From positions 2,144 through 66,143 of the forward strand of contig CAZFIH010000001.1 of assembly GCA_964519445.1 (NCBI GenBank): a stretch of DNA of 64,000 nucleotides. Direction: 5' to 3'. Position 1 is the first letter of the stretch, and every line of letters starts with the position of its first letter. Made by a program: the position numbers and the translations under genes. The notes under the pieces are model-generated. The model was not told the DNA's origin. It ran no database searches and saw only the letters and a program-made list of their open reading frames with translations. This document shows, piece after piece, positions 2,642 through 62,942 of this stretch. This DNA comes from an uncultured Bdellovibrionales bacterium (lineage in GTDB: Bacteria; Patescibacteriota; Minisyncoccia; Moranbacterales; UBA11712).

Positions 2642-3766
2642 TCATTTGTATGAGTCTGTCAGAATTTCTGAATAATTGTCCGGGTTGTGGTAACCGCCTT
2701 CAGTCGGATCATAAGCGGAAAGAGGCAGAGTGTAGCTTCGCCCGGTGGAAGGCGAAACCAGATCCGATTCCACGCCCATAATGGCATCGCTGAAATTATG
2801 CGAAGCGCGATCCTGGACGCTATTGCGATATTCCCAAGCTTCCATCAAGGGACTCGAATCATTCTCCAGATCCGCCGCAGTCGTCAGTTTGACCATATCC
2901 GCGCCGCCGACTTTTGAAGGATTGGTTATTATCGCGCTTAAAGCCACCCTTTCCAGAAGCGGCGCCCACTTGTCCCACTTGTCCGGTGTTGTCTGAAAAC
3001 CTTTGAAAACGGCAACATACTGCCCCTGGCCGTTGATAACACCGGCATCGGCTTTTATTTTCAGGGGAGTGTTCTCTTTTTTGCAGGTGAAAATTTTTGT
3101 CTTTTCTTTCCAGACATAGCCGGGAGCGGACGGATTGGCAATTTCTCCTTCTTCGGATTGTGAAATATAGTTTATGCTTGTCAGGCCGCCCATATCGGCT
3201 ATTTTTTCGATGAAAGCGTCCGGGCTGCTTTTGCCGGGCCAGCCCGAAACTGCGATCAGGGCGACGCCTATATTGCTGTCTTCAGGATTGACAATATTGA
3301 TTCCGTTTATGCTTTCATCCGTTTTCCAGCCTTCGGGAACCTTGGCGGAAAATATTTGCCCGTTGTAAGCGGCCAGCTTCAGGGAAGAATTTACATAATT
3401 TTCAGATAAGAATTCCGATCCGGCCGCGTCGTATTTTTCTGCTTCCTCCCTTGAGATGCATTTTTTTCCGTTGAAACATTCGCCCTTGCCGCAACTGCAG
3501 AATTTCACTTCATGGCTGTATTCAGGCGCGCAGCCGCAGGCCCCGATGGCGCAATTGTCCGGAAAATCTTCGGCTGACTCGCAGCAGGACGCGGCGGTAA
3601 CGGTGCCTCCCGAATCCAAACAGGCCTGTTCCCGGTCAGACGGCGTTTCAATATCCGCCGTTTTTTTATTTTCCGCCGGCATTTTTGTTTTTGAAAACTG
3701 AACTGCCGCCCAAACGGCCGTGCCGGCGATAATTATTGCAATAGCCGCCAAATAAATTTTTTTCAT
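2642..3766 (-). CDS. secreted/membrane-anchored Cys-rich protein (hypothetical)
   Basis: The ORF is trimmed to the internal start MKKIYLAAIAIIIAGTAVWA (signal anchor), because the longer start overlaps the upstream gene. An N-terminal Cys-rich module follows. Confidence 0.5.
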   Translation of the reverse strand: MKKIYLAAIAIIIAGTAVWAAVQFSKTKMPAENKKTADIETPSDREQACLDSGGTVTAASCCESAEDFPDNCAIGACGCAPEYSHEVKFCSCGKGECFNGKKCISREEAEKYDAAGSEFLSENYVNSSLKLAAYNGQIFSAKVPEGWKTDESINGINIVNPEDSNIGVALIAVSGWPGKSSPDAFIEKIADMGGLTSINYISQSEEGEIANPSAPGYVWKEKTKIFTCKKENTPLKIKADAGVINGQGQYVAVFKGFQTTPDKWDKWAPLLERVALSAIITNPSKVGGADMVKLTTAADLENDSSPLMEAWEYRNSVQDRASHNFSDAIMGVESDLVSPSTGRSYTLPLSAYDPTEGGYHNPDNYSEILTDSYK

Positions 3767-3788
3767 AAGCTTTCGTTTAATGTTTATT

Positions 3789-4742
3789 TTATTTTCTGCA
3801 TAGCCATACAAATTCACTTTGGCTGTCTTTTGAAAAGCATTCTTGTTTTTCACAGTCAAAACCTTGTTTCTTATATTCAGGCAGTTCGCTGCTTTCCGAT
3901 TTCAGATATTTCCAATCATCATATTTTGATTCACAAGTCCATTCCACTTTTGTCACAGATGGCTCGGGCATTACGCTCCCCTCCGCTTCACCTCCTGAAA
4001 ATTCCAAAGGCATGGGGTAACATTTATAATTTTTGTTTTCAAAGCCAATTACTTGGGCAGGCAGGCGTTTTTTGTCCCAATTTTCACGCGAAGTGATAGT
4101 GACTTCAGTATACTTTTCGTCAGTAAATGTTTGAAGATCTTTAAACGGCTCAACTGTTCCGTTTAGCAGATTAGTGCAATCTTTTCCGGAAAACGAGATA
4201 TCCGAACCAGTATTCGACTTAAAACTCCGGGCCATGCTCTCAAAAACGGTTCCAAATCTTTTGTATACGGACTCATTTTCATAAGTGCAAAAAAGACCAA
4301 GTCCTTCTTGGCCATTTAAAGTATAAATTGCGTCTTTCATTCCTTCGGGCTGCCGGGTAAGTAGATATATGGCTTTTTGTCCGGCTAAAAGCGTCTCTTT
4401 CTTTCCTAAAACTTTTTCCTCCGATGCCGGATCTTCCATAAGCCAGCTGATAAATTCTTCAAGATTTTGAGGCTTTCCTTGTTCGTTTGTCAGGGCATTA
4501 GAAAATCCGTAAGCATAACAAATGACCTCTTCTCCTGGAGCAATCATTTCTCGTCCGGCATTATTGGTTTCCGCTTCGCCCAACTGCCAGTTAGGCGGAT
4601 ATTTCAAACTGAAACCATAACGGGAGTTTTCATAAACGTTCCAACTGCTCCATTTCTGACCTTTAAAATATAAATAAAAAAGAAAAAAACAAAACAAGAT
4701 TATTACAATAATCACGATAAAGCAAATGACTTTCTTTTTCAT
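3789..4742 (-). CDS. membrane-anchored secreted protein (hypothetical)
   Basis: 317-aa ORF with an N-terminal TM (MKKKVICFIVIIVIILFCFF). An extended -10 TGTTATAAT lies upstream at 4775-4783 (minus). Confidence 0.5.
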   Translation of the reverse strand: MKKKVICFIVIIVIILFCFFLFYLYFKGQKWSSWNVYENSRYGFSLKYPPNWQLGEAETNNAGREMIAPGEEVICYAYGFSNALTNEQGKPQNLEEFISWLMEDPASEEKVLGKKETLLAGQKAIYLLTRQPEGMKDAIYTLNGQEGLGLFCTYENESVYKRFGTVFESMARSFKSNTGSDISFSGKDCTNLLNGTVEPFKDLQTFTDEKYTEVTITSRENWDKKRLPAQVIGFENKNYKCYPMPLEFSGGEAEGSVMPEPSVTKVEWTCESKYDDWKYLKSESSELPEYKKQGFDCEKQECFSKDSQSEFVWLCRK

Positions 4743-6086: not shown

Positions 6087-6203
6087 TCTCTGCGAACTAC
6101 GAAATTATACGAACATACGAAAATAAATTTCTCTTGTCGCGCGATTTACAAAATATTTGAACAACAATTTTTTATTTTAGTACATTTTCGTAGTTCGCAG
6201 AGA
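6087..6203. repeat. TACGAA-arm palindromic element between ftsE and ftsX (18-bp perfect inverted repeat TCTCTGCGAACTACGAAA, 81-nt spacer)
   Basis: Arms at 6087-6104 and 6186-6203. The loop contains AATATTTGAACA. Confidence 0.7.
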
Positions 6204-26218: not shown

Positions 26219-26246
26219 ACTGTTCCTTGCGAATTTTAGAATTTTC

Positions 26247-26362
26247 TTTACGAAATACGAATTTTGCGAAATACGAAAAAGTTAAAATAGCAGAACATTT
26301 TTTCACTAATCAACCAATCAATATTTGAACATCTGTTTCGTATTTCGTTGTTCGTAAATACG
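26247..26362. repeat. TACGAA-arm palindromic element upstream of the DUF4012 gene
   Basis: Arms TTACGAAATACGAATTTTGCGAAATACGAAA / TTTCGTATTTCGTTGTTCGTAAA. The loop contains AATATTTGAACA. Confidence 0.65.
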
Positions 26363-27484
26363 CTATGCGCAGTTTTTATAAATATCCAGCGTCTCCCTCG
26401 CCATTTTTTCCCAACTGTATTTTTTTACCTGCTTGTGACCTCCTGAAATGAGTTTTTGCCGGACCTCTCCGTTGGTTGCGACTTTTTCAATGGTCTCTGC
26501 CATTTCCGTAAGCGCTTGGGGGTCGAAATAGCAGGCGGCGTCGCCGAGAATTTCCGGAAGACAAGAAGCATTCGAACTGGCGACGGGAAGATTCCAGCTC
26601 ATGGCTTCAAGCGGAGGAAGGCCGAAGCCTTCGTAGAGCGACGGAAAAATATAGAGCAGGGCTTCCTTATAGAGGGTCCCCAGCTCGCCGTCCGGAACAA
26701 AATCAGTGAAAATAACTTGCCTTATTCGATTGTCTTTCACGAATTTTTTCAGTCGCCTGTAGAAATAGTCTTCTTTCCCCACCAGAACCAGATGAAGGTG
26801 AGGATGCTTCCGCACGAATTCCCTAAACACCAAAACAAGCCTCTCCAGGTTTTTATGAGGATAGGCGTTTCCCACGTACAAAATGTACGGCTTTATTATA
26901 CCATATTTTTTGTGAATCTGTTGAGGGCTGGCTCGTAGAGGCTCAAGAGTCCTGTCGACCGCTTCCAGAGTAACGGCTATTTTCCTCGAAGAAACGCGAA
27001 AGTGCTTCAAAATATCTTTTTTTGTGAATCGGGAAACAGCGATGATTTTTTCTGATTTTTTGACGGCGTTTCGTATGACGATCCGGTGGGCTATTTTTTT
27101 GAGAAAATAATAGAATGGCGACAAAGTCGTGGCGCGCTGAGTGGGAAAATGAAACAGGATCAGATCGTGAATAGTGACAACGAATTTTCCTTTCCAGAAA
27201 ACGGGAACGTTGAAATGCGGAAAATGGACCAGGTCGAGATTGTATTTTTTGAGTATTCGCGGAAAAAACACCTGTTCGCGGACTCCATACCAGGGAATAT
27301 TGGCCAACACCTTCGAGAAATTCTTGTTGGCCGGCTGATATTCATCCCAGTTTTCTTTTCGGAGAAAAATGAAAAATTTGTCTTCTGAAGACACTTTTTC
27401 CAGGTTCTCTATCAGTTTTTGGGTATAGCGGCCAAGTCCTTTTCCGAGAGATCCGTAAAAACGGGCGTCGATTCCAATTCTCAT
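26363..27484 (-). CDS. glycosyltransferase family 4 (GT-B, Glycos_transf_1)
   Basis: EGFGLPPLEAM...PV motif. Paralog of 27581..28714. Confidence 0.8.
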   Translation of the reverse strand: MRIGIDARFYGSLGKGLGRYTQKLIENLEKVSSEDKFFIFLRKENWDEYQPANKNFSKVLANIPWYGVREQVFFPRILKKYNLDLVHFPHFNVPVFWKGKFVVTIHDLILFHFPTQRATTLSPFYYFLKKIAHRIVIRNAVKKSEKIIAVSRFTKKDILKHFRVSSRKIAVTLEAVDRTLEPLRASPQQIHKKYGIIKPYILYVGNAYPHKNLERLVLVFREFVRKHPHLHLVLVGKEDYFYRRLKKFVKDNRIRQVIFTDFVPDGELGTLYKEALLYIFPSLYEGFGLPPLEAMSWNLPVASSNASCLPEILGDAACYFDPQALTEMAETIEKVATNGEVRQKLISGGHKQVKKYSWEKMARETLDIYKNCA

Positions 27485-27580
27485 ATTGACTCGCGCCTGC
27501 CTGCCGGCAGGCAGGAATTGTGAGTGGATTAAAACGAATGGGAGCGAATGATTCGTTCCAATTCGTACGCAATTCGTTCT
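27485..27580. repeat. duplicated upstream element R1 (GCCTGCCGGCAGGC palindrome plus TTCGT repeats) before GT4 gene 26363..27484
   Basis: About 80% identical to 28715-28812. Confidence 0.6.
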
Positions 27581-28714
27581 TCAATTTGTGAGTATTTTTA
27601 ATGTTTCATTGGCGCATTTCCTCCAGCTGAATTTTCGGGCTTGTTCCAGTCCTCTTTGACGGAGCGTTGTTTGGAGCTTTTCGTCTCCGAGTATAGACTT
27701 CATAGCTTCGCGTAACTGCTCGGGACGATTTGGGTCAATTGCTATGGCCGATTTTCCGGCAACTTGCGGAATCGAGGAATTATGAGAGGTGATTACCGGC
27801 GTTCCGCAGGCCATCGCCTCGAGGACCGGCAGGCCAAATCCCTCAAAATGGGAGGGATAGACAAAAAGGGAGGCCAAATTGTATAAGAAAGGCTTGTCGT
27901 CTTTGGCGACGTACCCAATGGAAAAAATGCCGTTTTTTTCCCGATTGAAAATATCCGTATATTGCCTGCTGATGTTTCCGGCAAAAACCAGTTTGCACCT
28001 TCCGAACTGCGCGTTGACTTTTTGAAAATCCTTGAAAGCCTCGATGATTGAAACTATATTTTTTCGCGGCTCGATATTGCCAAGATACAATATGTATTTG
28101 TATGGGAGTCCGTATTTCTTCTGGATCTCGAGGAGTTTTGGATCATTTCGATCAATAATTCTATATTCTTCTCCGACACCGTGCCGAACAACCCGCACTT
28201 TTTCCGGCGAAATGCCGTATATATTTTCCAAATCAGTTTTTGTTGATTTGGAAACCGCGATAACGGAATCAGAATTTCGGGCGATTTTTCGGGGATTCAC
28301 AAACCATGAATGCCAGAGCATGGTTTTGTGCCGGAAGAATTCCGGAAAATACTCAAAAGAAAGATCGTGAAAAGTGGTGACGAATTTGCAATTCCGGCTG
28401 ACGGTTAAAAAATTTATATTGGGTGCGAAAAAAACGTCGACTCCGCCGATCAGCTTGTCCAGTTTCGGCCAATTCAGGTACCAAAGAAAAAGATTCAGCA
28501 GCTTGTTGGGAAATCGAAATCTGGCCAGCTTGACATTGGAATATTCATCGATAAAAGAAAAATTCTCGTTTTGATTTCGAAAGGCATTGGAGAAAATAAT
28601 ATAGTCGTTTTTTCTGTCCGCTTCCAGCAAACAACGAATGATCTCCAGCGTGTACTCGCCTACTCCGGAAATATTTTCTTCCTCCAGGCTTCTCAAGTCG
28701 ATGCCAATCCTCAT
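27581..28714 (-). CDS. glycosyltransferase family 4
   Basis: EGFGLPVLEAMACGTPVITS motif. Confidence 0.8.
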   Translation of the reverse strand: MRIGIDLRSLEEENISGVGEYTLEIIRCLLEADRKNDYIIFSNAFRNQNENFSFIDEYSNVKLARFRFPNKLLNLFLWYLNWPKLDKLIGGVDVFFAPNINFLTVSRNCKFVTTFHDLSFEYFPEFFRHKTMLWHSWFVNPRKIARNSDSVIAVSKSTKTDLENIYGISPEKVRVVRHGVGEEYRIIDRNDPKLLEIQKKYGLPYKYILYLGNIEPRKNIVSIIEAFKDFQKVNAQFGRCKLVFAGNISRQYTDIFNREKNGIFSIGYVAKDDKPFLYNLASLFVYPSHFEGFGLPVLEAMACGTPVITSHNSSIPQVAGKSAIAIDPNRPEQLREAMKSILGDEKLQTTLRQRGLEQARKFSWRKCANETLKILTN

Positions 28715-28812
28715 AAAAACTCGCGCCTGCCGGCAGGCAGGCAGGAATTAGGAGTGAATTAGAAACGTGTGAAAACGAACTTTTCGTTCCGATTCGCGTG
28801 GAATTCGTTCTC
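28715..28812. repeat. duplicated upstream element R2 before GT4 gene 27581..28714
   Basis: The CCTGCCGGCAGG palindrome ends about 10 nt before the ATG, with AATTCGTTC repeats beyond it. Confidence 0.6.
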
Positions 28813-29424: not shown

Positions 29425-29497
29425 AAGTTAAATTTCCAAATTACAAGCGCCAACCACAACAAAATAAGATTCAATTATCAATTTTCAAATGACAGAA

Positions 29498-29550
29498 TTT
29501 TTGGATTTGAACATTGGAATTTGGTGCTTATTTGGAATTTGAGATTCGGT
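29498..29550. repeat. AT-rich TTTGGAATTTG-type repeat (also present inside rnpB at 35171-35211)
   Basis: TTTGGATTTGAACATTGGAATTTGGTGCTTATTTGGAATTTGAG compared with GGTATTTGGAAATTATTAGGTATTTGGATTTTGAAATTTGGAATTTCC. Confidence 0.45.
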
Positions 29551-30651
29551 TTATTGGTATTTGTGCGCGCGGAGCGCGTTCTCAATGTGGTATTTCATTT
29601 TACTCTTAAATATTTCTCTGTCAAATGGGAGAGCTCTCTGGCGGATCGCGTCAGAGTCGAAGTTTTGAGCATTGAATTTTCGAAGAATATTCATAAGAGA
29701 AGCAGAAGTTTGATCTTCGAAGAAAAGGCCGTCAACGCCTTCCCGCACGTGTTCAACGATATCCCCTCCCCGAAAAGCGATAATGGGTTTTCCGGAGGCC
29801 ATGGCCTCAACAGCCACGATTCCAAAATCTTCTTCCTGCGGAAAAATGAAAGCTTGAGCTTGAGCGTACACTTTGGCCAGTTCTTCATCACTCACTCGAC
29901 CCATGAATTCAATCGTGGGGCCGGCCATTTTCTGAAGCCGGTTTTGGTCGGGGCCGCGGCCAATGATTTTGAGAGGCCAGCCGAGCCGGTTGAAAGTTTC
30001 GATGACGATGTCAAATCTTTTGTAAGTCATCAGTCTTCCCACCATCAAAAAATAATCGCCTCGATTGGGATCGAGATGGAATTTTCCAGTGTCAACTGGA
30101 GGGTTTATGACCGTGGATTCTTTTTTGTAGTATTTTTTTATCCGCCCGGCCACGAACTTGGAATTGGCGACATACTCGCTCGGCCTTTCAGCGCTTAGCC
30201 GATCCCAGACGCGTATGAAATTCATGAAAAACGGGACCGACTTTCTGATAATCTTGGGAAATCCGAATTCGTCGATGTATTTTTGGCAATCATCCCAGGC
30301 GTATCGCATCGGCGTATGGCAATAGCAGACGTGGTGGACATGGGGCGGCGAGATGACGCCTTTGGCGTAGCTTGAAGAGTCCGAAAGAATGACGTCGTAT
30401 TTTGAGAGGTCGAACTGTTCGATGGCGAGCGGCATCAAGGGTGGAAATATGCGGTGATTTTTTCGGGAATAGGGAAAATTTTGGAGAAACGAGGTATATA
30501 TCCTTTTTTCTCTGAAAATGCCGTGAGTCTTTTTTTCGTCGTAAATAAGCGTATAAATCGGCGCGTAAGGCCAGATTTCAGCGAAGCATTCGAGAACCCG
30601 CTCGGCTCCGCCGTATTGGACGAGATAGTCGTGAACAAGGGCTATTTTCAT
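29551..30651 (-). CDS. glycosyltransferase family 4
   Basis: EDFGIVAVEAMASGKPII motif. Confidence 0.8.
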   Translation of the reverse strand: MKIALVHDYLVQYGGAERVLECFAEIWPYAPIYTLIYDEKKTHGIFREKRIYTSFLQNFPYSRKNHRIFPPLMPLAIEQFDLSKYDVILSDSSSYAKGVISPPHVHHVCYCHTPMRYAWDDCQKYIDEFGFPKIIRKSVPFFMNFIRVWDRLSAERPSEYVANSKFVAGRIKKYYKKESTVINPPVDTGKFHLDPNRGDYFLMVGRLMTYKRFDIVIETFNRLGWPLKIIGRGPDQNRLQKMAGPTIEFMGRVSDEELAKVYAQAQAFIFPQEEDFGIVAVEAMASGKPIIAFRGGDIVEHVREGVDGLFFEDQTSASLMNILRKFNAQNFDSDAIRQRALPFDREIFKSKMKYHIENALRAHKYQ

Positions 30652-33099: not shown

Positions 33100-33194
33100 G
33101 AAATAAACGAAAGTACGAAACAGATTTCAAGATATTGATTGATTCATAAAGGGAAAAAGTTCCTGATATTTCAACGCTTTCGTATTTCGTAATG
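33100..33194. repeat. TACGAA-arm palindromic element between the dedA-like gene and the sugar transferase gene
   Basis: Arms ACGAAAGTACGAAAC / GCTTTCGTATTTCGTAA. The loop contains GATATTTCAACG. Confidence 0.6.
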
Positions 33195-34613
33195 CTAAAG
33201 ATTTTTCCTTTTCTTCATCAGCACGAAAAATGTTTTAAATAGAATTTCAATATCCATCCAGAGCGACCAGTTTTCAATGTAGTAAATGTCCAGTTGAGCC
33301 TCCTCGGAAAAGCTCAAATCGGACCGTCCCGAGATTTGGGCCATTCCCGTCACGCCGGGCTTGATGGAGAGAGTCCTCTTCTGCCAGGTCTCGTATTTTT
33401 CGACTTCGCGCGGCTGGTGAGGGCGCGGTCCGACAAGACTCATGTCTCCTTTGAGAACGTTCCAGAGCTGGGGAAGCTCGTCAATGGAGAGCGGTTCAAT
33501 GATTTTTCCCACTCGCGTTTTGCGAGGGTCCTTTTTTATTTTGTAAAGGGGGCCTTTGCGCACACTTTGCTTTTCGATAAGCTCTTTCTCATATTCCAAG
33601 GCGTCTTTCATGTTAGGATTTTGGGAGCCGACGCAATACTCTATTTTCATATAGCGAAATTTCAAAACATTGAAATTTCTCTTGTGGCCAACCCGTTCGT
33701 TTTTGAAGATGATGGGGCCTTTTGAATCGAGCTTGATGGCGATCGCCGTAAGAAGGAGCACTGGAGACATGAGCACGAGTCCGGTGAATGATCCGACAAT
33801 GTCAAACGCTCTTTTGATTATTTTCCCCCATCCGTCGAGCGGCGTGTTCTTGATGGCGATAATTGGTTCATCAAAAAGAGTTTTGATTTCAAAATTAGTG
33901 CTGACTGACTGAAGAATTGCCGGAACAAATTTGAATTCAATCCGATTTCGGTGGCAGAAGTCGCTGGCTTCGCGGAGTTTTTCCATGGCAATGTGCGGAT
34001 CGCAAACCAGAATCTCGTCTATTTTTTTGACTTTGTGGATTTCTTGAAGAGAATCAACGTTTATGTCATCTTTCCTGGCGATGATTTTGTACCCAAGACT
34101 GGGATTTTTGTGAAACTGTTCACACAGTGTGTCGCAGTATCTGCCGCTTCCAATCAGAACCATTCTGTGAAGGCCGATGCTCTTGTAGACAAGAAGGAGC
34201 CGTTGAAAGAAGTTAATGGCATAGCGGGACGTGGATACCAGGACGATAGCCAATCCCCAGGCTGTGAGTATGACAAAACGCGAAGAAAACCAGTCCCTTT
34301 GCAGGAATATGACAAAGATAATTAGTGTCACACCGACAGTGACGGAAAAAGCAATTTCAATCAGTTCTTTCCAGAAAACTCGGGTTGATTTGAGTGAATA
34401 TAGGCCCTGAATCGCAAAAATGACCAAAAAAAACGGGGCGATAATGAGGACCACCTTGAGATAAGCATTGAAGGGGAAATCAAATAAAACCGGCTTTATG
34501 TCGATGATGCCGGGAGTAAAACGAAACCAATAAGCAAGAACAGCCGCAGCTACGATCATCAGGAAGTCAACCGGAAGAAGCAGGAGAGCGAAGATTAGCT
34601 CTGATTTTTTCAT
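33195..34613 (-). CDS. polyprenyl-phosphate sugar phosphotransferase (bacterial sugar transferase, WbaP/EpsB-like)
   Basis: C-terminal [10 protein letters not shown]...[18 protein letters not shown] catalytic domain. N-terminal TMs. Confidence 0.85.
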
Positions 34614-34614
34614 G

Positions 34615-34660
34615 CGGTCGTTACGAAGTACGAACTCCTACGAAGTTGCGAACTCGTGCA
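34615..34660. repeat. tandem TACGAAGT(T)RCGAACTC direct repeat 3' of rnpB
   Basis: TTACGAAGTACGAACTCCTACGAAGTTGCGAACTCG. Homologous to the P3-internal TTACGAACATACGAACTACGAA. Confidence 0.55.
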
Positions 34661-34724
34661 AATTTATTATTTATATTCAAAAGCGAGTCCGATGGTGTTT
34701 CAAGGATTTATTTCAATAACACTA

Positions 34725-35416
34725 ATATATACAGTTAGCCAAAACCTGTAAGCCGGATTCTGTCCCCTCCCTTCACGAAGGAAGGGGGATAATCATTTAT
34801 CTAGCCCCGGCGTCGCCGACGGGGTCAAGCGTCTCCCCCTTTCTCTACCAAGGAAGGGGTACAGACTTGCATCAGGCAGGGTTTGCCAAGGCACGGCCGT
34901 TGCCAGCCGGCTCCAATCGCAGCTCAATACCTCACGTGAGTGAATATTGAACACCAATCGGCTTTTCACCTTTGACCGACGCGAAGCATCGGCTAGTATA
35001 GTCTCTGTGGCACTTTCCCTGAATCCATCTTTCAATGAAACCGATGGGCGTTATCCATTGCCTGCTTCCACCACTGCCTCGCAACGGGAGCTCCAATAAT
35101 CAAGCGCCAAATGACAAATAAATATCAATTACCGAAATTCTAATGACCAGAAGTTTTGGTTATCGGAAATTGGTATTTGGAAATTATTAGGTATTTGGAT
35201 TTTGAAATTTGGAATTTCCGATGCGAAGCATTGGAGGGATGTCCGGACTTTCCTCGCGGATCCTTACGAATTACGAATACGCTTCGCTCTTACGAACATA
35301 CGAACTACGAATTATCTTTATTAACATCAGAGGATGATGCGGGTTCGTAGATTCGTATTCATTCCGTAATTCGTAAGGATCCGCGCGATTATCCGGTTTT
35401 GGCTAACTGTATATAT
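34725..35416 (-). ncRNA. rnpB: RNase P RNA, about 690 nt, with expanded P3 and an inserted AT-rich hairpin
   Basis: On the minus strand: a 22-bp perfect terminal pairing ATATATACAGTTAGCCAAAACC / GGTTTTGGCTAACTGTATATAT (P1); GGATAATC/GATTATCC (P2); P4 5' strand GAGGAAAGTCCGGAC (plus 35241-35255); AAAGTGCCACAG (plus 35005-35016); P4 3' strand ACAGAATCCGGCTTA (plus 34749-34763). A consensus TTGACA-15-TATAAT promoter lies at 35417-35446. Confidence 0.75.
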
Positions 35417-35446
35417 TATAATACTTTGCCGACTTTGTCAACCTCG
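35417..35446 (-). promoter_or_regulatory. sigma70-type promoter (TTGACA ... TATAAT) for rnpB
   Basis: The minus strand reads TTGACAAAGTCGGCAAAGTATTATAATATATACAG. The transcription start falls at the P1 5' strand. Confidence 0.6.
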
Positions 35447-35884
35447 TTAGAAAATTCTCGATTGGGCCCGAGTGGCTTCGTCCAGGGCTATATTGGCCAG
35501 TTTGTCGGCTTCAACGTTTTTACTTCTGGGAATGTGGAAATATTTCACATCTTTGAAGTCTATGGATAGATTCCAGAGGAGTAAAAAAAATTTCTGAATA
35601 TTATCGTCGAGCACTTTGTATTTTTTGTTCAGTTGCTTCACCACCAGCTCGCTGTCCGAATAGCATTCCAGCTCCAGACTCTTGCTTTTTGTTTTTCCGT
35701 ATAGCAATTTGATTTTCTGGAGAGCAAAAACAAGAGCTTTGTACTCGGCTTCGTTGTTGGTGGCGTAGCCGATGAATTCTCGGTAGGTTTTTTTGCTTCC
35801 GGTACTCTCGATTACGACTCCGATGGCCGAAGGGCCGGGGTTCCCCCGCGCGGCTCCATCGGAATAGACTCGTATTTTACTCAT
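35447..35884 (-). CDS. rnhA: ribonuclease HI
   Basis: YSDGAARGNPGPSA, E-containing helix, HIPRSKN and ADKLAN motifs. Confidence 0.85.
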   Translation of the reverse strand: MSKIRVYSDGAARGNPGPSAIGVVIESTGSKKTYREFIGYATNNEAEYKALVFALQKIKLLYGKTKSKSLELECYSDSELVVKQLNKKYKVLDDNIQKFFLLLWNLSIDFKDVKYFHIPRSKNVEADKLANIALDEATRAQSRIF

Positions 35885-54407: not shown

Positions 54408-54803
54408 TCACCAGTTCAGGAAAGTTATCGTGAGCTGGAGTACTGTCGCGAACGCTATCCACAGAAGATAAGGGATGTTTGCATACGCGACCCAGCGCAT
54501 GCGCGGCCAAGCTGACGCCATAGCCCAAACAAGAGTCGCGAGAACGAGGATAACATCCACCGCCGCCAGCAGATTATTCCGGAGACCGAACTGGATCGGC
54601 GAGAAAGCGAAATTAAAAACGAGATTCAGCGCGAAAGGCAAAGCGACCAGCGAAGGCAGCTTCTTCCGGTACGCTTTCCAAAAAACAGCAAGGAAAGTGA
54701 CGGCAATAATCGCATAAAGCACCGTCCAAACAGGGCCGAACACCCAGGCCGGAGGAGCCCAAAAAGGCTTTGCGAGAGTTTGATACCAGTCAAAGGCTTC
54801 CAT
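54408..54803 (-). CDS. TspO/MBR family tryptophan-rich sensory protein
   Basis: WYQTLAKPFWAPPAWVFGPVWTVLY motif with five TM helices. A paralog sits at 62535..62942. Confidence 0.8.
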   Translation of the reverse strand: MEAFDWYQTLAKPFWAPPAWVFGPVWTVLYAIIAVTFLAVFWKAYRKKLPSLVALPFALNLVFNFAFSPIQFGLRNNLLAAVDVILVLATLVWAMASAWPRMRWVAYANIPYLLWIAFATVLQLTITFLNW

Positions 54804-56740: not shown

Positions 56741-56905
56741 GAGTGGCACGTACCACTTCCCCGCCGCGGGTAGGGATAGCAGAATTTTTTCACAGAATGT
56801 CATACTTACATTCTCAAGTATGTAAGGATGTCGTGTTGTGTGCTGGGTTTGTGATACTCCCCCGCCGCGGGCGGGGAATACGGAATTATTTTTTCCTAAA
56901 GTTCT
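56741..56905. repeat. family-1 mosaic repeat, copy C (two GC-hairpin modules, one degenerate)
   Basis: CACGTACC; CCCCGCCGCGGGTAGGG; AGAATGT...ACATTCT; GTCGTGTTGTGTGCTGGGTTTGTGATACT; CCCCCGCCGCGGGCGGGGAATACGGAATTATTTTTT. Confidence 0.65.
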
Positions 56906-57659: not shown

Positions 57660-57806
57660 GTCACGTACCTTACCTGCCCGCCTTTGGCTGCGGTACGTAT
57701 CCGGTTACTTATAATTTGCCCGCCGCGGGCGGGAATCACGGAATTATTTTGCAAATAACATTCTCACATTCTCCCCCCAGAGGCGGGCAGGCAAGAATGC
57801 TGGAGG
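57660..57806. repeat. family-1 mosaic repeat, copy D
   Basis: ACGTACC...GGTACGT hairpin, GCCCGCCGCGGGCGGGAATCACGGAATTATTTTG, then a 45-nt near-identical copy of the 1409-1456 module. Confidence 0.65.
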
Positions 57807-62534: not shown

Positions 62535-62942
62535 TTAGTTCCAATTCAAATAGGTTATCGTGAATTGAAGGCCGGTAGCGAAAATGACCCACAGGAGGTA
62601 TGGGATATTCGCAAGCGCGATCCAGCGGGCGTGCGGCCAAATCGCAACCATTGCCCAAATGAGGGTGCCGAGGACGAGGAGTATGTCAATCGCTGCCAAA
62701 AGATTGCTTTGAAGCCGGAATTGAATCGGAGAGAAGGCGAAATTAAAAATGAGATTCAGGATGAACGGAAGAAGAACCAGAAAGGACACGCGGCCTTTCC
62801 AAAATAAATACACCGCGTATCCGAACGAAACGGCAATGATTATGTACAAAGCGGTCCAAACCGGACCGAAAATCCACGCCGGTGGCGCCCAGGAGGGTTT
62901 TATAAGTTCTTGATACCAATTGAAAGTGTCCATATTGTTCAT
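62535..62942 (-). CDS. TspO/MBR family protein (second copy)
   Basis: WYQELIKPSWAPPAWIFGPVWTALY motif. Roughly 60% identical to 54408..54803. Confidence 0.8.
   Translation of the reverse strand: MNNMDTFNWYQELIKPSWAPPAWIFGPVWTALYIIIAVSFGYAVYLFWKGRVSFLVLLPFILNLIFNFAFSPIQFRLQSNLLAAIDILLVLGTLIWAMVAIWPHARWIALANIPYLLWVIFATGLQFTITYLNWN

Follow-up and report, generated by a model that had tools for sequence, protein, structure and literature searches.

The 64,000-nt stretch of DNA analysed here (the window) carries on its minus strand an RNA gene with the hallmarks of RNase P RNA and a length beyond that of the usual bacterial form. This raises the question of whether one intact ribozyme is encoded, where the additional sequence comes from, and what becomes of it in the RNA. 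The locus is rnpB, the bacterial type A RNase P RNA gene, of a Candidatus Moranbacteria (CPR/Patescibacteria) genome. Our overall account, in which we place high confidence, is that of an intact type A rnpB with two peripheral helices lengthened by dispersed-repeat inserts.

Gene limits and conserved core

The covariance model RF00010 matches the minus strand with 111.9 bits (gathering score 100; E = 2.2e-33). This search had been named as a check in a preliminary description made from the sequence, and the match is significant, but it is restricted to 34733-35112 although the model is spanned in full (1-367), and its 5' third is misaligned. The P4 5' strand is deleted (18 model positions, GAGGAAAGUCC among them), and P1 to P3 contain many non-canonical pairs of low posterior probability. 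As the alignment starts at 35112, the CR-I block is absent from it. We placed the 5' third of the gene by aligning it to relatives and set the 3' end as the end of the P1 pairing. On the RF00010 match and this alignment, rnpB is proposed to occupy 34733-35408 (minus strand, ~676 nt). It is the one copy found in the 64-kb window.

The promoter lies at 35413-35441 (minus strand). Its -35 hexamer is TTGACA (35436-35441), and the -10 hexamer is TATAAT (35415-35420) or TAATAT (35413-35418, 17-nt spacer), in agreement with the consensus promoter first described. Four syntenic relatives have TTGACA and TATAATAT unchanged, and in these the gene order RecJ - RNase H - rnpB - sugar-transferase is kept with a gap of 770-870 nt. 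The promoter spacing predicts transcription to start at A35408, which is the first base of P1.

The P1 5' strand, AGTTAGCCAAAACC (35395-35408), pairs with 34733-34746 and lies inside a perfect inverted repeat of 24 nt at the ends of rnpB (34723-34746 with 35395-35418). P1 had been taken as a perfect 22-bp duplex. The perfect repeat is there, and is longer than stated, but its outer 10 bp (35409-35418) extend into the -10 box, ahead of the likely start, and relatives pair over only ~13-14 bp. Hence, the mature P1 probably has 14 bp and the RNA ~676 nt. Inside P1, the P2 5' strand GGATAATC (35387-35394) is complementary to GATTATCC at 34787-34794 and is conserved in all relatives. These nested closing helices are perfect (14 and 8 bp), and P3 sits between P2 and P4.

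The P4 pseudoknot is formed by CR-I, GAGGAAAGTCCGGAC (35241-35255), and CR-V, ACAGAATCCGGCTTA (34749-34763), which correspond to the consensus strands GAGGAAAGUCC and ACAGAAxCCGGCUUA and are invariant in relatives. CR-V and the P1 3' strand together make up 34733-34763. The specificity domain and the 3' strands of P7 and P5 occupy 34870-35064, where the RF00010 alignment has high posterior probability, including the conserved J11/12 (AGGGAAAGUGCCACAGA); the block 34996-35020 begins with AGGGAAAGTGCCACAG. P7 to P14 are of ordinary size. The region 34764-34866 holds P15-17 (34831-34866), P18 (34805-34824), the P2 3' strand (34787-34794) and a short P19 (34764-34787). Inspection of the sequence between P15 and P16 revealed no obvious GGU loop that could bind CCA. 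The helix order P1-P2-P3-P4-P5, P7 to P14, P15 to P18, P19 and the blocks CR-I to CR-V are thus all present; the core elements are intact, and neither the catalytic core nor the specificity domain departs from the usual form. The minus-strand hallmarks of rnpB reported earlier therefore hold, with a score above the gathering value and with P1, P2, CR-I and CR-V located and invariant in syntenic relatives.

Read at face value, the coverage of model positions 1-367 within 34733-35112 would suggest that the true gene is this shorter RNA and that the 300 nt upstream of it consist of intergenic repeats unrelated to it, or else that the long form is an assembly artefact. We consider either version highly improbable. 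The short alignment drops the P4 5' strand and builds P1-P3 from the poor pairs described above, whereas the genuine 5' strands of CR-I, P2 and P1 are found further upstream, where they follow the conserved promoter and are perfectly complementary to their 3' partners. A promoter-like site is absent within 35040-35260. Against an artefact, homologous inserts occupy the same sites in independent assemblies of other samples.

The P3 and J5/7 inserts and their copies

The gene is indeed longer than usual, though by less than first estimated: the excess is ~270 nt over the minimal Moranbacteria forms (~406-412 nt) and not ~300 nt, and the RNA probably has ~676 nt and not ~690 nt. The additional sequence is found in P3 and in J5/7, as two blocks that each fold into a hairpin of their own.

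The expanded P3 is a TACGAA-repeat hairpin of 129-131 nt at 35255-35385 (minus strand), compared with 19-23 nt in minimal relatives. It is closed by a perfect 21-bp basal stem, which is part of a run of 25 paired bases with one bulge, and a GCGAAGC bulge hairpin sits in its 3' arm. The predicted folding energy is -60 kcal/mol (z -8.9). Eight TACGAA/TTCGTA hexamers recur with a period of ~8 nt. The size, the stem and the 8-nt periodicity had all been described correctly for this hairpin. The element is homologous to the P3 of three other lineages (L034, L006 and L039), and in these four diverged lineages the stems are near-perfect and ~20-22 bp long. Double compensatory changes occur at 5 of 36 P3 pairs, a count that comes from just 4 sequences. 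Outside rnpB, extragenic hairpins of L008 and L006 match the 3' arm with 92-93% identity across 44-50 nt.

The second insert had been placed directly after P4 as a 61-nt hairpin. This assignment was not borne out. The insert follows P5 and lies in J5/7, at the P5.1 position, as one long imperfect hairpin of ~170 nt (35068-35237, minus strand), in which the host stem pairs 35220-35237 with 35068-35086. The best fold is this single hairpin (-56.7 kcal/mol, z -5.9), and forcing the ATCGGAAATT/AATTTCCGAT stem proposed earlier costs 11.5 kcal/mol. J5/7 measures ~170-180 nt here and is a hairpin-containing segment of ~30 nt in minimal relatives. Inside the hairpin, which is rich in bulges and internal loops, lies an AT-rich dispersed element of 133 nt, GGAAATTCCAAAT...ATTATTGGAGCTCC (35087-35219, minus strand). 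It is homologous to the P15-17 insert of the L027 rnpB (score 100 vs 17.6 +/- 2.3 for shuffles) and to an intergenic copy in the window (29425-29560; local score 71 vs 19.7 +/- 3.3). The intergenic copy has the same orientation (minus strand) and lies between two minus-strand ORFs. It forms a weak hairpin with z -1.4, and the rnpB-resident copies fold much better (z -5.9). As the intergenic copy gives no convincing hairpin, the AT-rich element may not be intrinsically palindromic everywhere.

We rejected the idea of a promoter inside the AT-rich element that would give a 5'-truncated RNA from ~35112, because the 9/12 match in the intergenic copy is no better than chance and the rnpB copy lacks a match altogether.

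TACGAA repeats recur in the window as well. Four clusters of at least three TACGAA-type hexamers were observed, compared with 0.005 expected from shuffles; besides P3, they lie at 6098-6116, 26249-26272 and 34622-34639. The first belongs to an intergenic hairpin with an 18-bp perfect stem (6087-6203; -40.2 kcal/mol, z -5.7), and the second to an intergenic inverted repeat whose hairpin energy is not significant (26240-26360; z -1.1). The third is part of a repeat cluster just downstream of rnpB and upstream of the sugar-transferase gene (34622-34655, minus strand), which occurs at the same position in L003, L006 and L018. A looser inverted repeat with a weak hairpin (33100-33195; z -1.6) lies between the sugar-transferase and VTT-domain genes, and L008 has, at the matching position, an element closely related to that of P3. 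With 2 mismatches allowed, the pattern TACGAANNTACGAA is not significantly enriched (9 matches vs 5.6 expected); the appropriate enrichment test for these repeats is the cluster statistic and not a single-pattern count. The hairpin z-scores of the dispersed elements were -8.9, -5.9, -5.9 and -4.8.

Both inserts had been said to recur between genes of the window. For the AT-rich element this is correct, as 29425-29560 is a homologous copy. For P3, the other sites in the window share the short repeat motif only (local scores of 26-32, near background), and the homologous copies are found in other genomes. Each element thus has homologous copies at unrelated loci and is self-complementary, though the intergenic AT-rich copy is weak in this respect. 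Judged by these alignments and predicted folds, both inserts are members of palindromic dispersed-repeat families that otherwise lie between protein-coding genes in Moranbacteria.

Variation among relatives and origin of the inserts

Relatives were collected via a conserved rnpB DNA pattern and compared by anchor-based segmentation and with MAFFT; the latter produced an artefact in which the CR-I block slid across the second gap. A RecJ protein search of representative genomes confirmed no relative, and the neighbouring RNase H had no exact-protein match. Comparison with related rnpB genes had been proposed earlier, and it places the repeat inserts in a clade-wide pattern. Among 22 distinct Moranbacteria rnpB genes, the P2-P4 span varies from 374 to 1021 nt and the gene length from ~410 nt to >1,000 nt. 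Inserts occur at seven sites: P3, J5/7, P10/11, P12, P13, P15-17 and P19. An insert-free RNA of ~410 nt (406-412) is found in at least six sampled lineages, and the two minimal relatives that were checked give full-length Rfam matches of 173-180 bits. With its two blocks removed, the window RNA is 67-74% identical to these ~410-nt relatives. The reading of repeat elements in permissive helices of an intact rnpB, which the preliminary description had offered, is supported by this relative-like remainder and by homologues of the inserts, which lie outside the gene or, in another species, in a different helix of it.

In the L027 rnpB, a 133-nt element occupies P3 and recurs as its reverse complement in P19 (score 231). 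In L003, a single module is present in P3, P17 and P19. A long P19 element occurs in many lineages, and the GTCCGACCGC module is confined to rnpB in the sampled flanks. We also asked whether the GTCCGACCGC...CUGAUG module is a hammerhead or another known motif. This was not supported: Rfam scans at gathering level of the loci with the module gave RNase P only, and the module occurs in both orientations.

In L018, a 258-nt ORF for a GIY-YIG nuclease (Pfam, E = 2.5e-17) sits in the 301-nt P3 insert. Patescibacteria often carry group I introns in their tRNA and rRNA genes (PMC13011429, PMC11270868), and the inserts could accordingly be thought of as self-splicing introns of group I or II. We find this hardly tenable. 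A permissive Rfam scan of 34600-35500 gave no intron family up to E = 1, simple repeat hairpins of 130-170 nt leave no room for an intron core, and in L018 the ORF takes up all but a small part of the insert.

From these comparisons we conclude that palindromic mobile repeats appear to have repeatedly lengthened peripheral helices of Moranbacteria rnpB. Insertion of the elements would take place in the DNA, at helix tips and in both possible orientations. The occurrence of one element in two helices and opposite orientations in L027 points to such DNA-level insertion. As the elements are palindromic, they should fold on themselves, so that the host helix grows outward. Pairing of P4 and the other core strands is unchanged from relatives, so that the inserts should be compatible with ribozyme function. 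If modules have repeatedly been gained, lost and exchanged at some seven permissive sites, this would account for the ~410 to >1,000-nt genes of the clade. By inspection, neither insert shows a target-site duplication at its borders, and the loci contain no transposase associated with the elements. Thus, the term mobile refers to distribution and orientation only.

The extensions might instead be adaptive arms for protein binding or tertiary contacts, which make up for lost features of CPR RNase P and are kept for folding or function. The TACGAA P3 shared by four lineages with compensatory changes would also fit a selected structural role in place of a selfish insert. The long P19 element of many lineages, the confinement of the GTCCGACCGC module to rnpB in the sampled flanks and the far better folding of the rnpB-resident AT-rich copies would also agree with such a role. 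However, at least six sampled lineages do without inserts, with an RNA of ~410 nt that matched Rfam over its full length in the two cases checked. The same element occupies different helices among species and occurs in both orientations within one RNA, which alters loop and bulge sequences, and the element families also lie between protein genes. We therefore regard an adaptive origin as improbable and prefer insertion of palindromic repeats.

Moranbacteria rnpB provides a natural test bed for the proposal that structured RNAs grow by self-folding inserts at helix tips. Among close genomes, the same ribozyme core is combined with anything from no hairpin module to seven; these modules come from identifiable repeat families and differ in orientation and in host helix. 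P3 and J5/7, which accept inserts of 130-300 nt, one of them protein-coding, are candidate permissive sites for experiments. There is also a consequence for annotation. The standard Rfam model truncates the gene of the window and misses, at the gathering threshold, the expanded rnpB of three relatives (L004, L006 and L018). Hence, rnpB is likely reported absent or mis-bounded in many CPR genomes. Assembly is affected too: three short contigs among the closest RecJ relatives (P0002, P0004 and P0008) end inside or just before rnpB and contain a partial P3 only.

Fate of the inserts and comparison with known systems

We lean slightly towards both inserts being retained in the mature RNA, where they would serve as expansion segments. 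It is possible, if somewhat doubtful, that an RNase III-type enzyme cuts them out and that the ends are not religated. The RNA would then consist of two to three pieces held together by P1, P2, the residual P3 and the P5.1 stem, like fragmented 23S rRNA, which raises the question of whether a bacterial RNase P RNA works in pieces. Long-stem inserts at helix tips, as in intervening sequences of the RNase III type, are present at both sites, perfect over 21 bp in P3 and long but imperfect in J5/7. A stem of the length of the P3 run, with 25 paired bases and one bulge, is expected to suit RNase III. The ~20-22-bp stems kept by compensatory changes in four lineages go beyond what simple tolerance needs, and a protein-coding ORF in the P3 of a relative is awkward for a compact mature ribozyme. 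ORF-less inserts at helix tips of CPR rRNA are thought to be intervening sequences of this type (PMC11270868). Against excision, the J5/7 hairpin is a poor RNase III substrate because it is full of bulges and internal loops. The repeat-bearing P12 of cyanobacterial RNase P RNA reportedly stays in the mature RNA, and no bacterial RNase P RNA is known to us to be fragmented in nature. A search of the 64-kb window for an RNase III signature gave no match, a result that says nothing about the rest of the genome.

A more far-reaching scenario combines both processes in a present-day accretion of RNA. Palindromic mobile elements, one with a GIY-YIG nuclease gene, would land in about seven helix tips, and at least inserts with perfect pairing, like the 21-bp stem of P3, would be cut by RNase III to leave a naturally fragmented, multi-piece RNase P RNA. 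We consider this combination unlikely.

As a type A RNase P RNA (RF00010), the RNA of the window has the expected helix order, the blocks CR-I to CR-V, a promoter-proximal 5' end at P1 and an above-threshold score. It differs in its length (~676 nt vs 367 in the model) and in its P3 of ~130 nt. J5/7 is normally a short junction in type A, and type B has P5.1 there; here, it is a hairpin of ~170 nt.

As repeats, the elements resemble MITE- or REP-like sequences in being small, non-coding, self-complementary, multicopy, intergenic and found in either orientation, within the sampled 64 kb and short flanks. They differ in that neither a target-site duplication nor a cognate transposase was found at the loci.

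The cyanobacterial case reportedly involves heptanucleotide repeats at a single site, P12. Short tandemly repeated repetitive (STRR) sequences in helix P12 are described for the RNase P RNA of heterocyst-forming cyanobacteria (Vioque 1997, as cited in PMC2858038). The likeness is that a genome-wide short tandem repeat family extends a peripheral rnpB helix as a hairpin. The Moranbacteria system differs in its repeats, which are 8-nt TACGAA units in P3 and an AT-rich element of 133 nt in J5/7, and in the use of several sites across the clade. P12 of the window RNA is a plain hairpin of just 23 nt, and the repeats with 8-nt period are in P3.

For CPR, Lui, Nielsen and Arkin (2021, PMC8172020) described RNase P RNAs with large helix extensions, which had to be refolded manually and which RF00010 failed to find at default thresholds. 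The sections available to us of that study illustrate this with individual cases, an extended P15 among them, and also show RNAs that lack helices. A repeat or mobile origin, an element in different helices and orientations, an ORF in P3 and the 374-1021-nt range are absent from those sections.

Insertions in CPR rRNA genes (PMC11270868; Brown et al. 2015) share with the present inserts an essential structured RNA as host and a patchy distribution among lineages. Short (<200 bp), ORF-less, non-intron insertions are found there at the tips or bases of stem-loops, and a few others, likewise not introns, encode GIY-YIG proteins (Tsurumaki et al. 2024, PMC11270868). The host differs, being rnpB here and not 16S or 23S, and RNase P has 0 occurrences in PMC11270868. 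The insertion habit of CPR rRNA and tRNA genes would thus extend to a third essential RNA.

Identity and boundaries of the RNase P RNA gene

The feature is real; the gene family is ordinary, the repeat-built architecture unusual. We inspected the minus strand of 34725-35416 directly and searched the whole window with Rfam at the gathering threshold. The only RNase P match covers 34733-35112; it is to RF00010, the bacterial type A family, and scores 111.9 bits (E = 2e-33; gathering cut-off 100), which bears out an rnpB gene on this strand. A permissive rescan of 34600-35500 left the match unchanged and gave no second credible family. The alignment is reliable from P7 to the 3' end. The aligned 5' third is forced: P1-P3 are assembled with many non-canonical pairs, and 18 model positions with the P4 5' strand are deleted. 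The true 5' strands of P1, P2 and P4 lie upstream of the match, where the preliminary description had placed them. At 35241-35408, we found P1 (AGTTAGCCAAAACC, 35395-35408, paired with 34733-34746), P2 (GGATAATC, 35387-35394, paired with 34787-34794) and CR-I, the P4 5' strand (GAGGAAAGTCCGGAC, 35241-35255). CR-V, the P4 3' strand (ACAGAATCCGGCTTA), is located at 34749-34763. Rfam also lists three tRNA genes in the window (RF00005; 4922-4992, 11993-12064 and 12081-12153).

Directly upstream of the 5' elements is a promoter, TTGACA followed by TATAAT or TAATAT. The gene ends form a perfect 24-nt inverted repeat (I5), which had been read as a 22-bp P1. Because the outer 10 bp of I5 represent the -10 box and the 3' trailer, promoter spacing (kept in relatives) places the start at A35408, and P1 of relatives pairs over 13-14 bp only, P1 probably comprises 14 bp, which gives an RNA of about 676 nt.

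The best relatives of the neighbouring RecJ (57-68% identity) are from Candidatus Moranbacteria (Patescibacteria/CPR). Four relatives share the gene order, with RecJ and RNase H on one side of an unannotated 770-870-nt gap and a sugar transferase on the other. In the alignment of these gaps, the promoter hexamers, P1/P2, CR-I, J11/12, J12/13 and CR-V are invariant; each of the four is oversized, and the additional sequence lies at differing places. Using a conserved 24-nt pattern, rnpB loci were collected from representative genomes (11) and metagenomes (27), and segmentation between conserved anchors yielded 22 distinct genes. Their P2-P4 span extends from 374-380 nt in six minimal forms (L011, L017, L023, L029, L040 and L045) to 1021 nt (L027/L030), and is 646 nt in the window. 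Rfam was applied to two of the minimal forms, L011 and L017, and matched both over their full length (173-180 bits). Over shared columns, identity between the window RNA and the six minimal forms is 67-74%, and the difference consists essentially of two window-only blocks, P3 (129 nt versus 19-23 nt) and J5/7 (181 nt versus about 30 nt). P12, P10/11, P15-17 and P19 of the window RNA have the size seen in minimal forms.

At the gathering threshold, RF00010 detects no RNase P RNA in the whole loci L004, L006 and L018, where an expanded rnpB is nevertheless present in full; standard annotation would report the gene absent there. Two loci carry other taxonomic labels and are, from their sequences, probably mis-assigned bins: L013 (DATGZC010000010.1, Bathyarchaeia archaeon) carries the 24-nt pattern and a bacterial rnpB of Moranbacteria type (201 bits), and L010 (CAZAQS010000110.1, Anaerolineaceae) matches by the 24-nt rnpB pattern only.

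The inserts in P3 and J5/7

The P3 hairpin (35255-35385, minus strand, 129-131 nt) is as previously described, with a perfect 21-bp basal stem (I19) and eight TACGAA/TTCGTA hexamers recurring about every 8 nt; its folding energy is -60 kcal/mol (z -8.9). The second insert had been described as a 61-nt hairpin just after P4. It is in fact larger and lies after P5 in J5/7, the position occupied by P5.1 in type B RNAs. The best fold of the 181 nt from CR-I to P8 is a single long imperfect hairpin at 35068-35237 (-56.7 kcal/mol, z -5.9), and forcing the 10-bp stem proposed earlier (ATCGGAAATT/AATTTCCGAT) costs 11.5 kcal/mol. Apart from this insert and the shorter P1, the preliminary description was mostly correct. 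The strands of the ribozyme core are preserved, and both inserts form folds of their own.

Three or more TACGAA/TTCGTA hexamers cluster at four sites in the window (P3, 6098-6116, 26249-26272 and 34622-34639) versus 0.005 expected from dinucleotide shuffles, and a looser TACGAA-type inverted repeat is present at 33100-33195. All sites outside P3 are intergenic and flanked by co-directional ORFs, and the hairpin at 6087-6203 folds strongly (z -5.7). The P3 insert recurs in the window as a repeat motif, as claimed, but the likeness is at motif level only. The element itself has homologs in P3 of L034 and L006, which score 82 and 71, respectively (shuffle maxima about 31-32). Extragenic hairpins in two genomes match the 3' arm of the P3 element, with its GCGAAGC mini-hairpin, at 92-93% identity over 44-50 nt; that of L008 is located between the sugar-transferase and VTT-domain genes, that of L006 just downstream of rnpB. 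A TACGAA hairpin occupies the sugar transferase/VTT-domain slot in two diverged Moranbacteria (window 33100-33195, L008 1741-1823), and in the window, L003, L006 and L018 a TACGAA cluster is located 3' of rnpB. Such hairpins may be terminators or processing sites.

The P3 extensions of the window, L034, L039 and L006 support a common helix of 36 pairs, 5 of which show both-sided changes. The perfect stems, about 20-22 bp long and maintained by compensatory change, would be suitable for excision by an RNase III-type enzyme, as in the intervening sequences of 23S rRNA, but the bulged J5/7 hairpin would not. We lean slightly towards inserts that stay in the RNA.

The core of the J5/7 hairpin is an AT-rich element (35087-35219). 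Its recurrence between genes of the window is confirmed by a homologous copy at 29425-29560 in the same orientation (score 71 versus 19.7 ± 3.3). It is closer still to an insert in another helix, P15-17 of the L027 rnpB (score 100 versus 17.6 ± 2.3), and shorter relatives are found in P12 of L004 and L027. Together with the L008 and L006 hairpins that match the P3 arm, the copies at 29425-29560 and in P15-17 of L027 support the earlier proposal that repeat elements have invaded rnpB helices.

The window holds further repeats. GC-rich palindromes CCCCGCCGCGGGCGGG within 51-nt repeats (D2/D3) form a separate family (1523-1542, 2546-2565, 56755-56774, 56856-56875 and 57714-57733) and may be terminator-like or REP-like elements. 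A 68-nt direct repeat (D5/I10; 27467-27534 and 28697-28764, 84% identical) holds the palindrome GCCTGCCGGCAGGCAGG between successive minus-strand ORFs, and a 240-nt direct repeat (D1) is located at 54411-54650 and 62541-62780 (70% identity).

Insert modules in other Moranbacteria and their proposed origin

The largest rnpB found, L027/L030 (Ga0207433_10063354, Ga0078972_1004085), has inserts in P3, J5/7, P12, P13, P15-17 and P19. A 133-nt palindromic element makes up P3 of L027, and P19 is built from the reverse complement of this element (score 231, about 93% identical). L003 carries one module of about 70 nt in P3, P17 and P19, and a related GTCCGACCGC module occupies P12, J5/7, P13 or P15-17 in other species. 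Within the sampled flanks, a hairpin module about 40-70 nt long, whose core reads GTCCGACCGC...GCGGTCGGAC, was seen inside rnpB only, in a helix that differs between species (L003 8338-8891; L004 8274-8308; L006 8568-8577; L018 3205-3214; P12 of L013). In L018 (Moraniibacteriota), P3 has a 17-bp stem, and its loop contains a 301-nt insert with an 85-aa ORF (3542-3799, minus strand) matching a GIY-YIG nuclease domain (Pfam PF01541, E = 2.5e-17). P19 of the same RNA is closed by this stem sequence as well (CCAGCCCCAGTTTT...AAAACTGGAGCTGG). In L020, a hairpin CCCCGTTTGAAAA...TTTTCAAACGGGG is inserted in the rnpB promoter, with TTGAC on both sides. Three short Logan contigs of close relatives (L019 4671-4877, L020 5673-5916 and the end of L021) stop inside or just before rnpB, which suggests assembly breaks at repeats.

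A specific RNA motif hardly accounts for an element that can occupy any peripheral helix in both orientations; a self-folding palindromic repeat readily does. Such a repeat would fold on itself wherever it is inserted, and each insert would lengthen a helix pointing away from the core, which could be why P3, J5/7, P10/11, P12, P13, P15-17 and P19 all accept inserts. From the inverted P3/P19 pair of L027, the modules in varied helices, the GIY-YIG insert of L018 and the promoter hairpin of L020, we infer that the inserts arise by a mobile-repeat process at the DNA level.

Comparison with known RNA genes

Lui et al. (2021; PMC8172020) reported that the RNase P RNAs of CPR bacteria have diverged, with greatly extended helices, and that RF00010 misses them at default thresholds. 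In CPR rRNA genes, short non-intron insertions occur at stem-loop tips and some encode GIY-YIG proteins; RNase P is nowhere mentioned in that paper (PMC11270868). In the literature on RNase P RNA with Patescibacteria, repeats or intervening sequences, we found no description of the present pattern. The window rnpB exemplifies a clade-wide phenomenon, apparently undescribed in this form. A classical precedent is provided by repeats within P12 of cyanobacterial rnpB. Unlike the cyanobacterial gene, the window gene has a minimal P12 and carries its repeats in P3.
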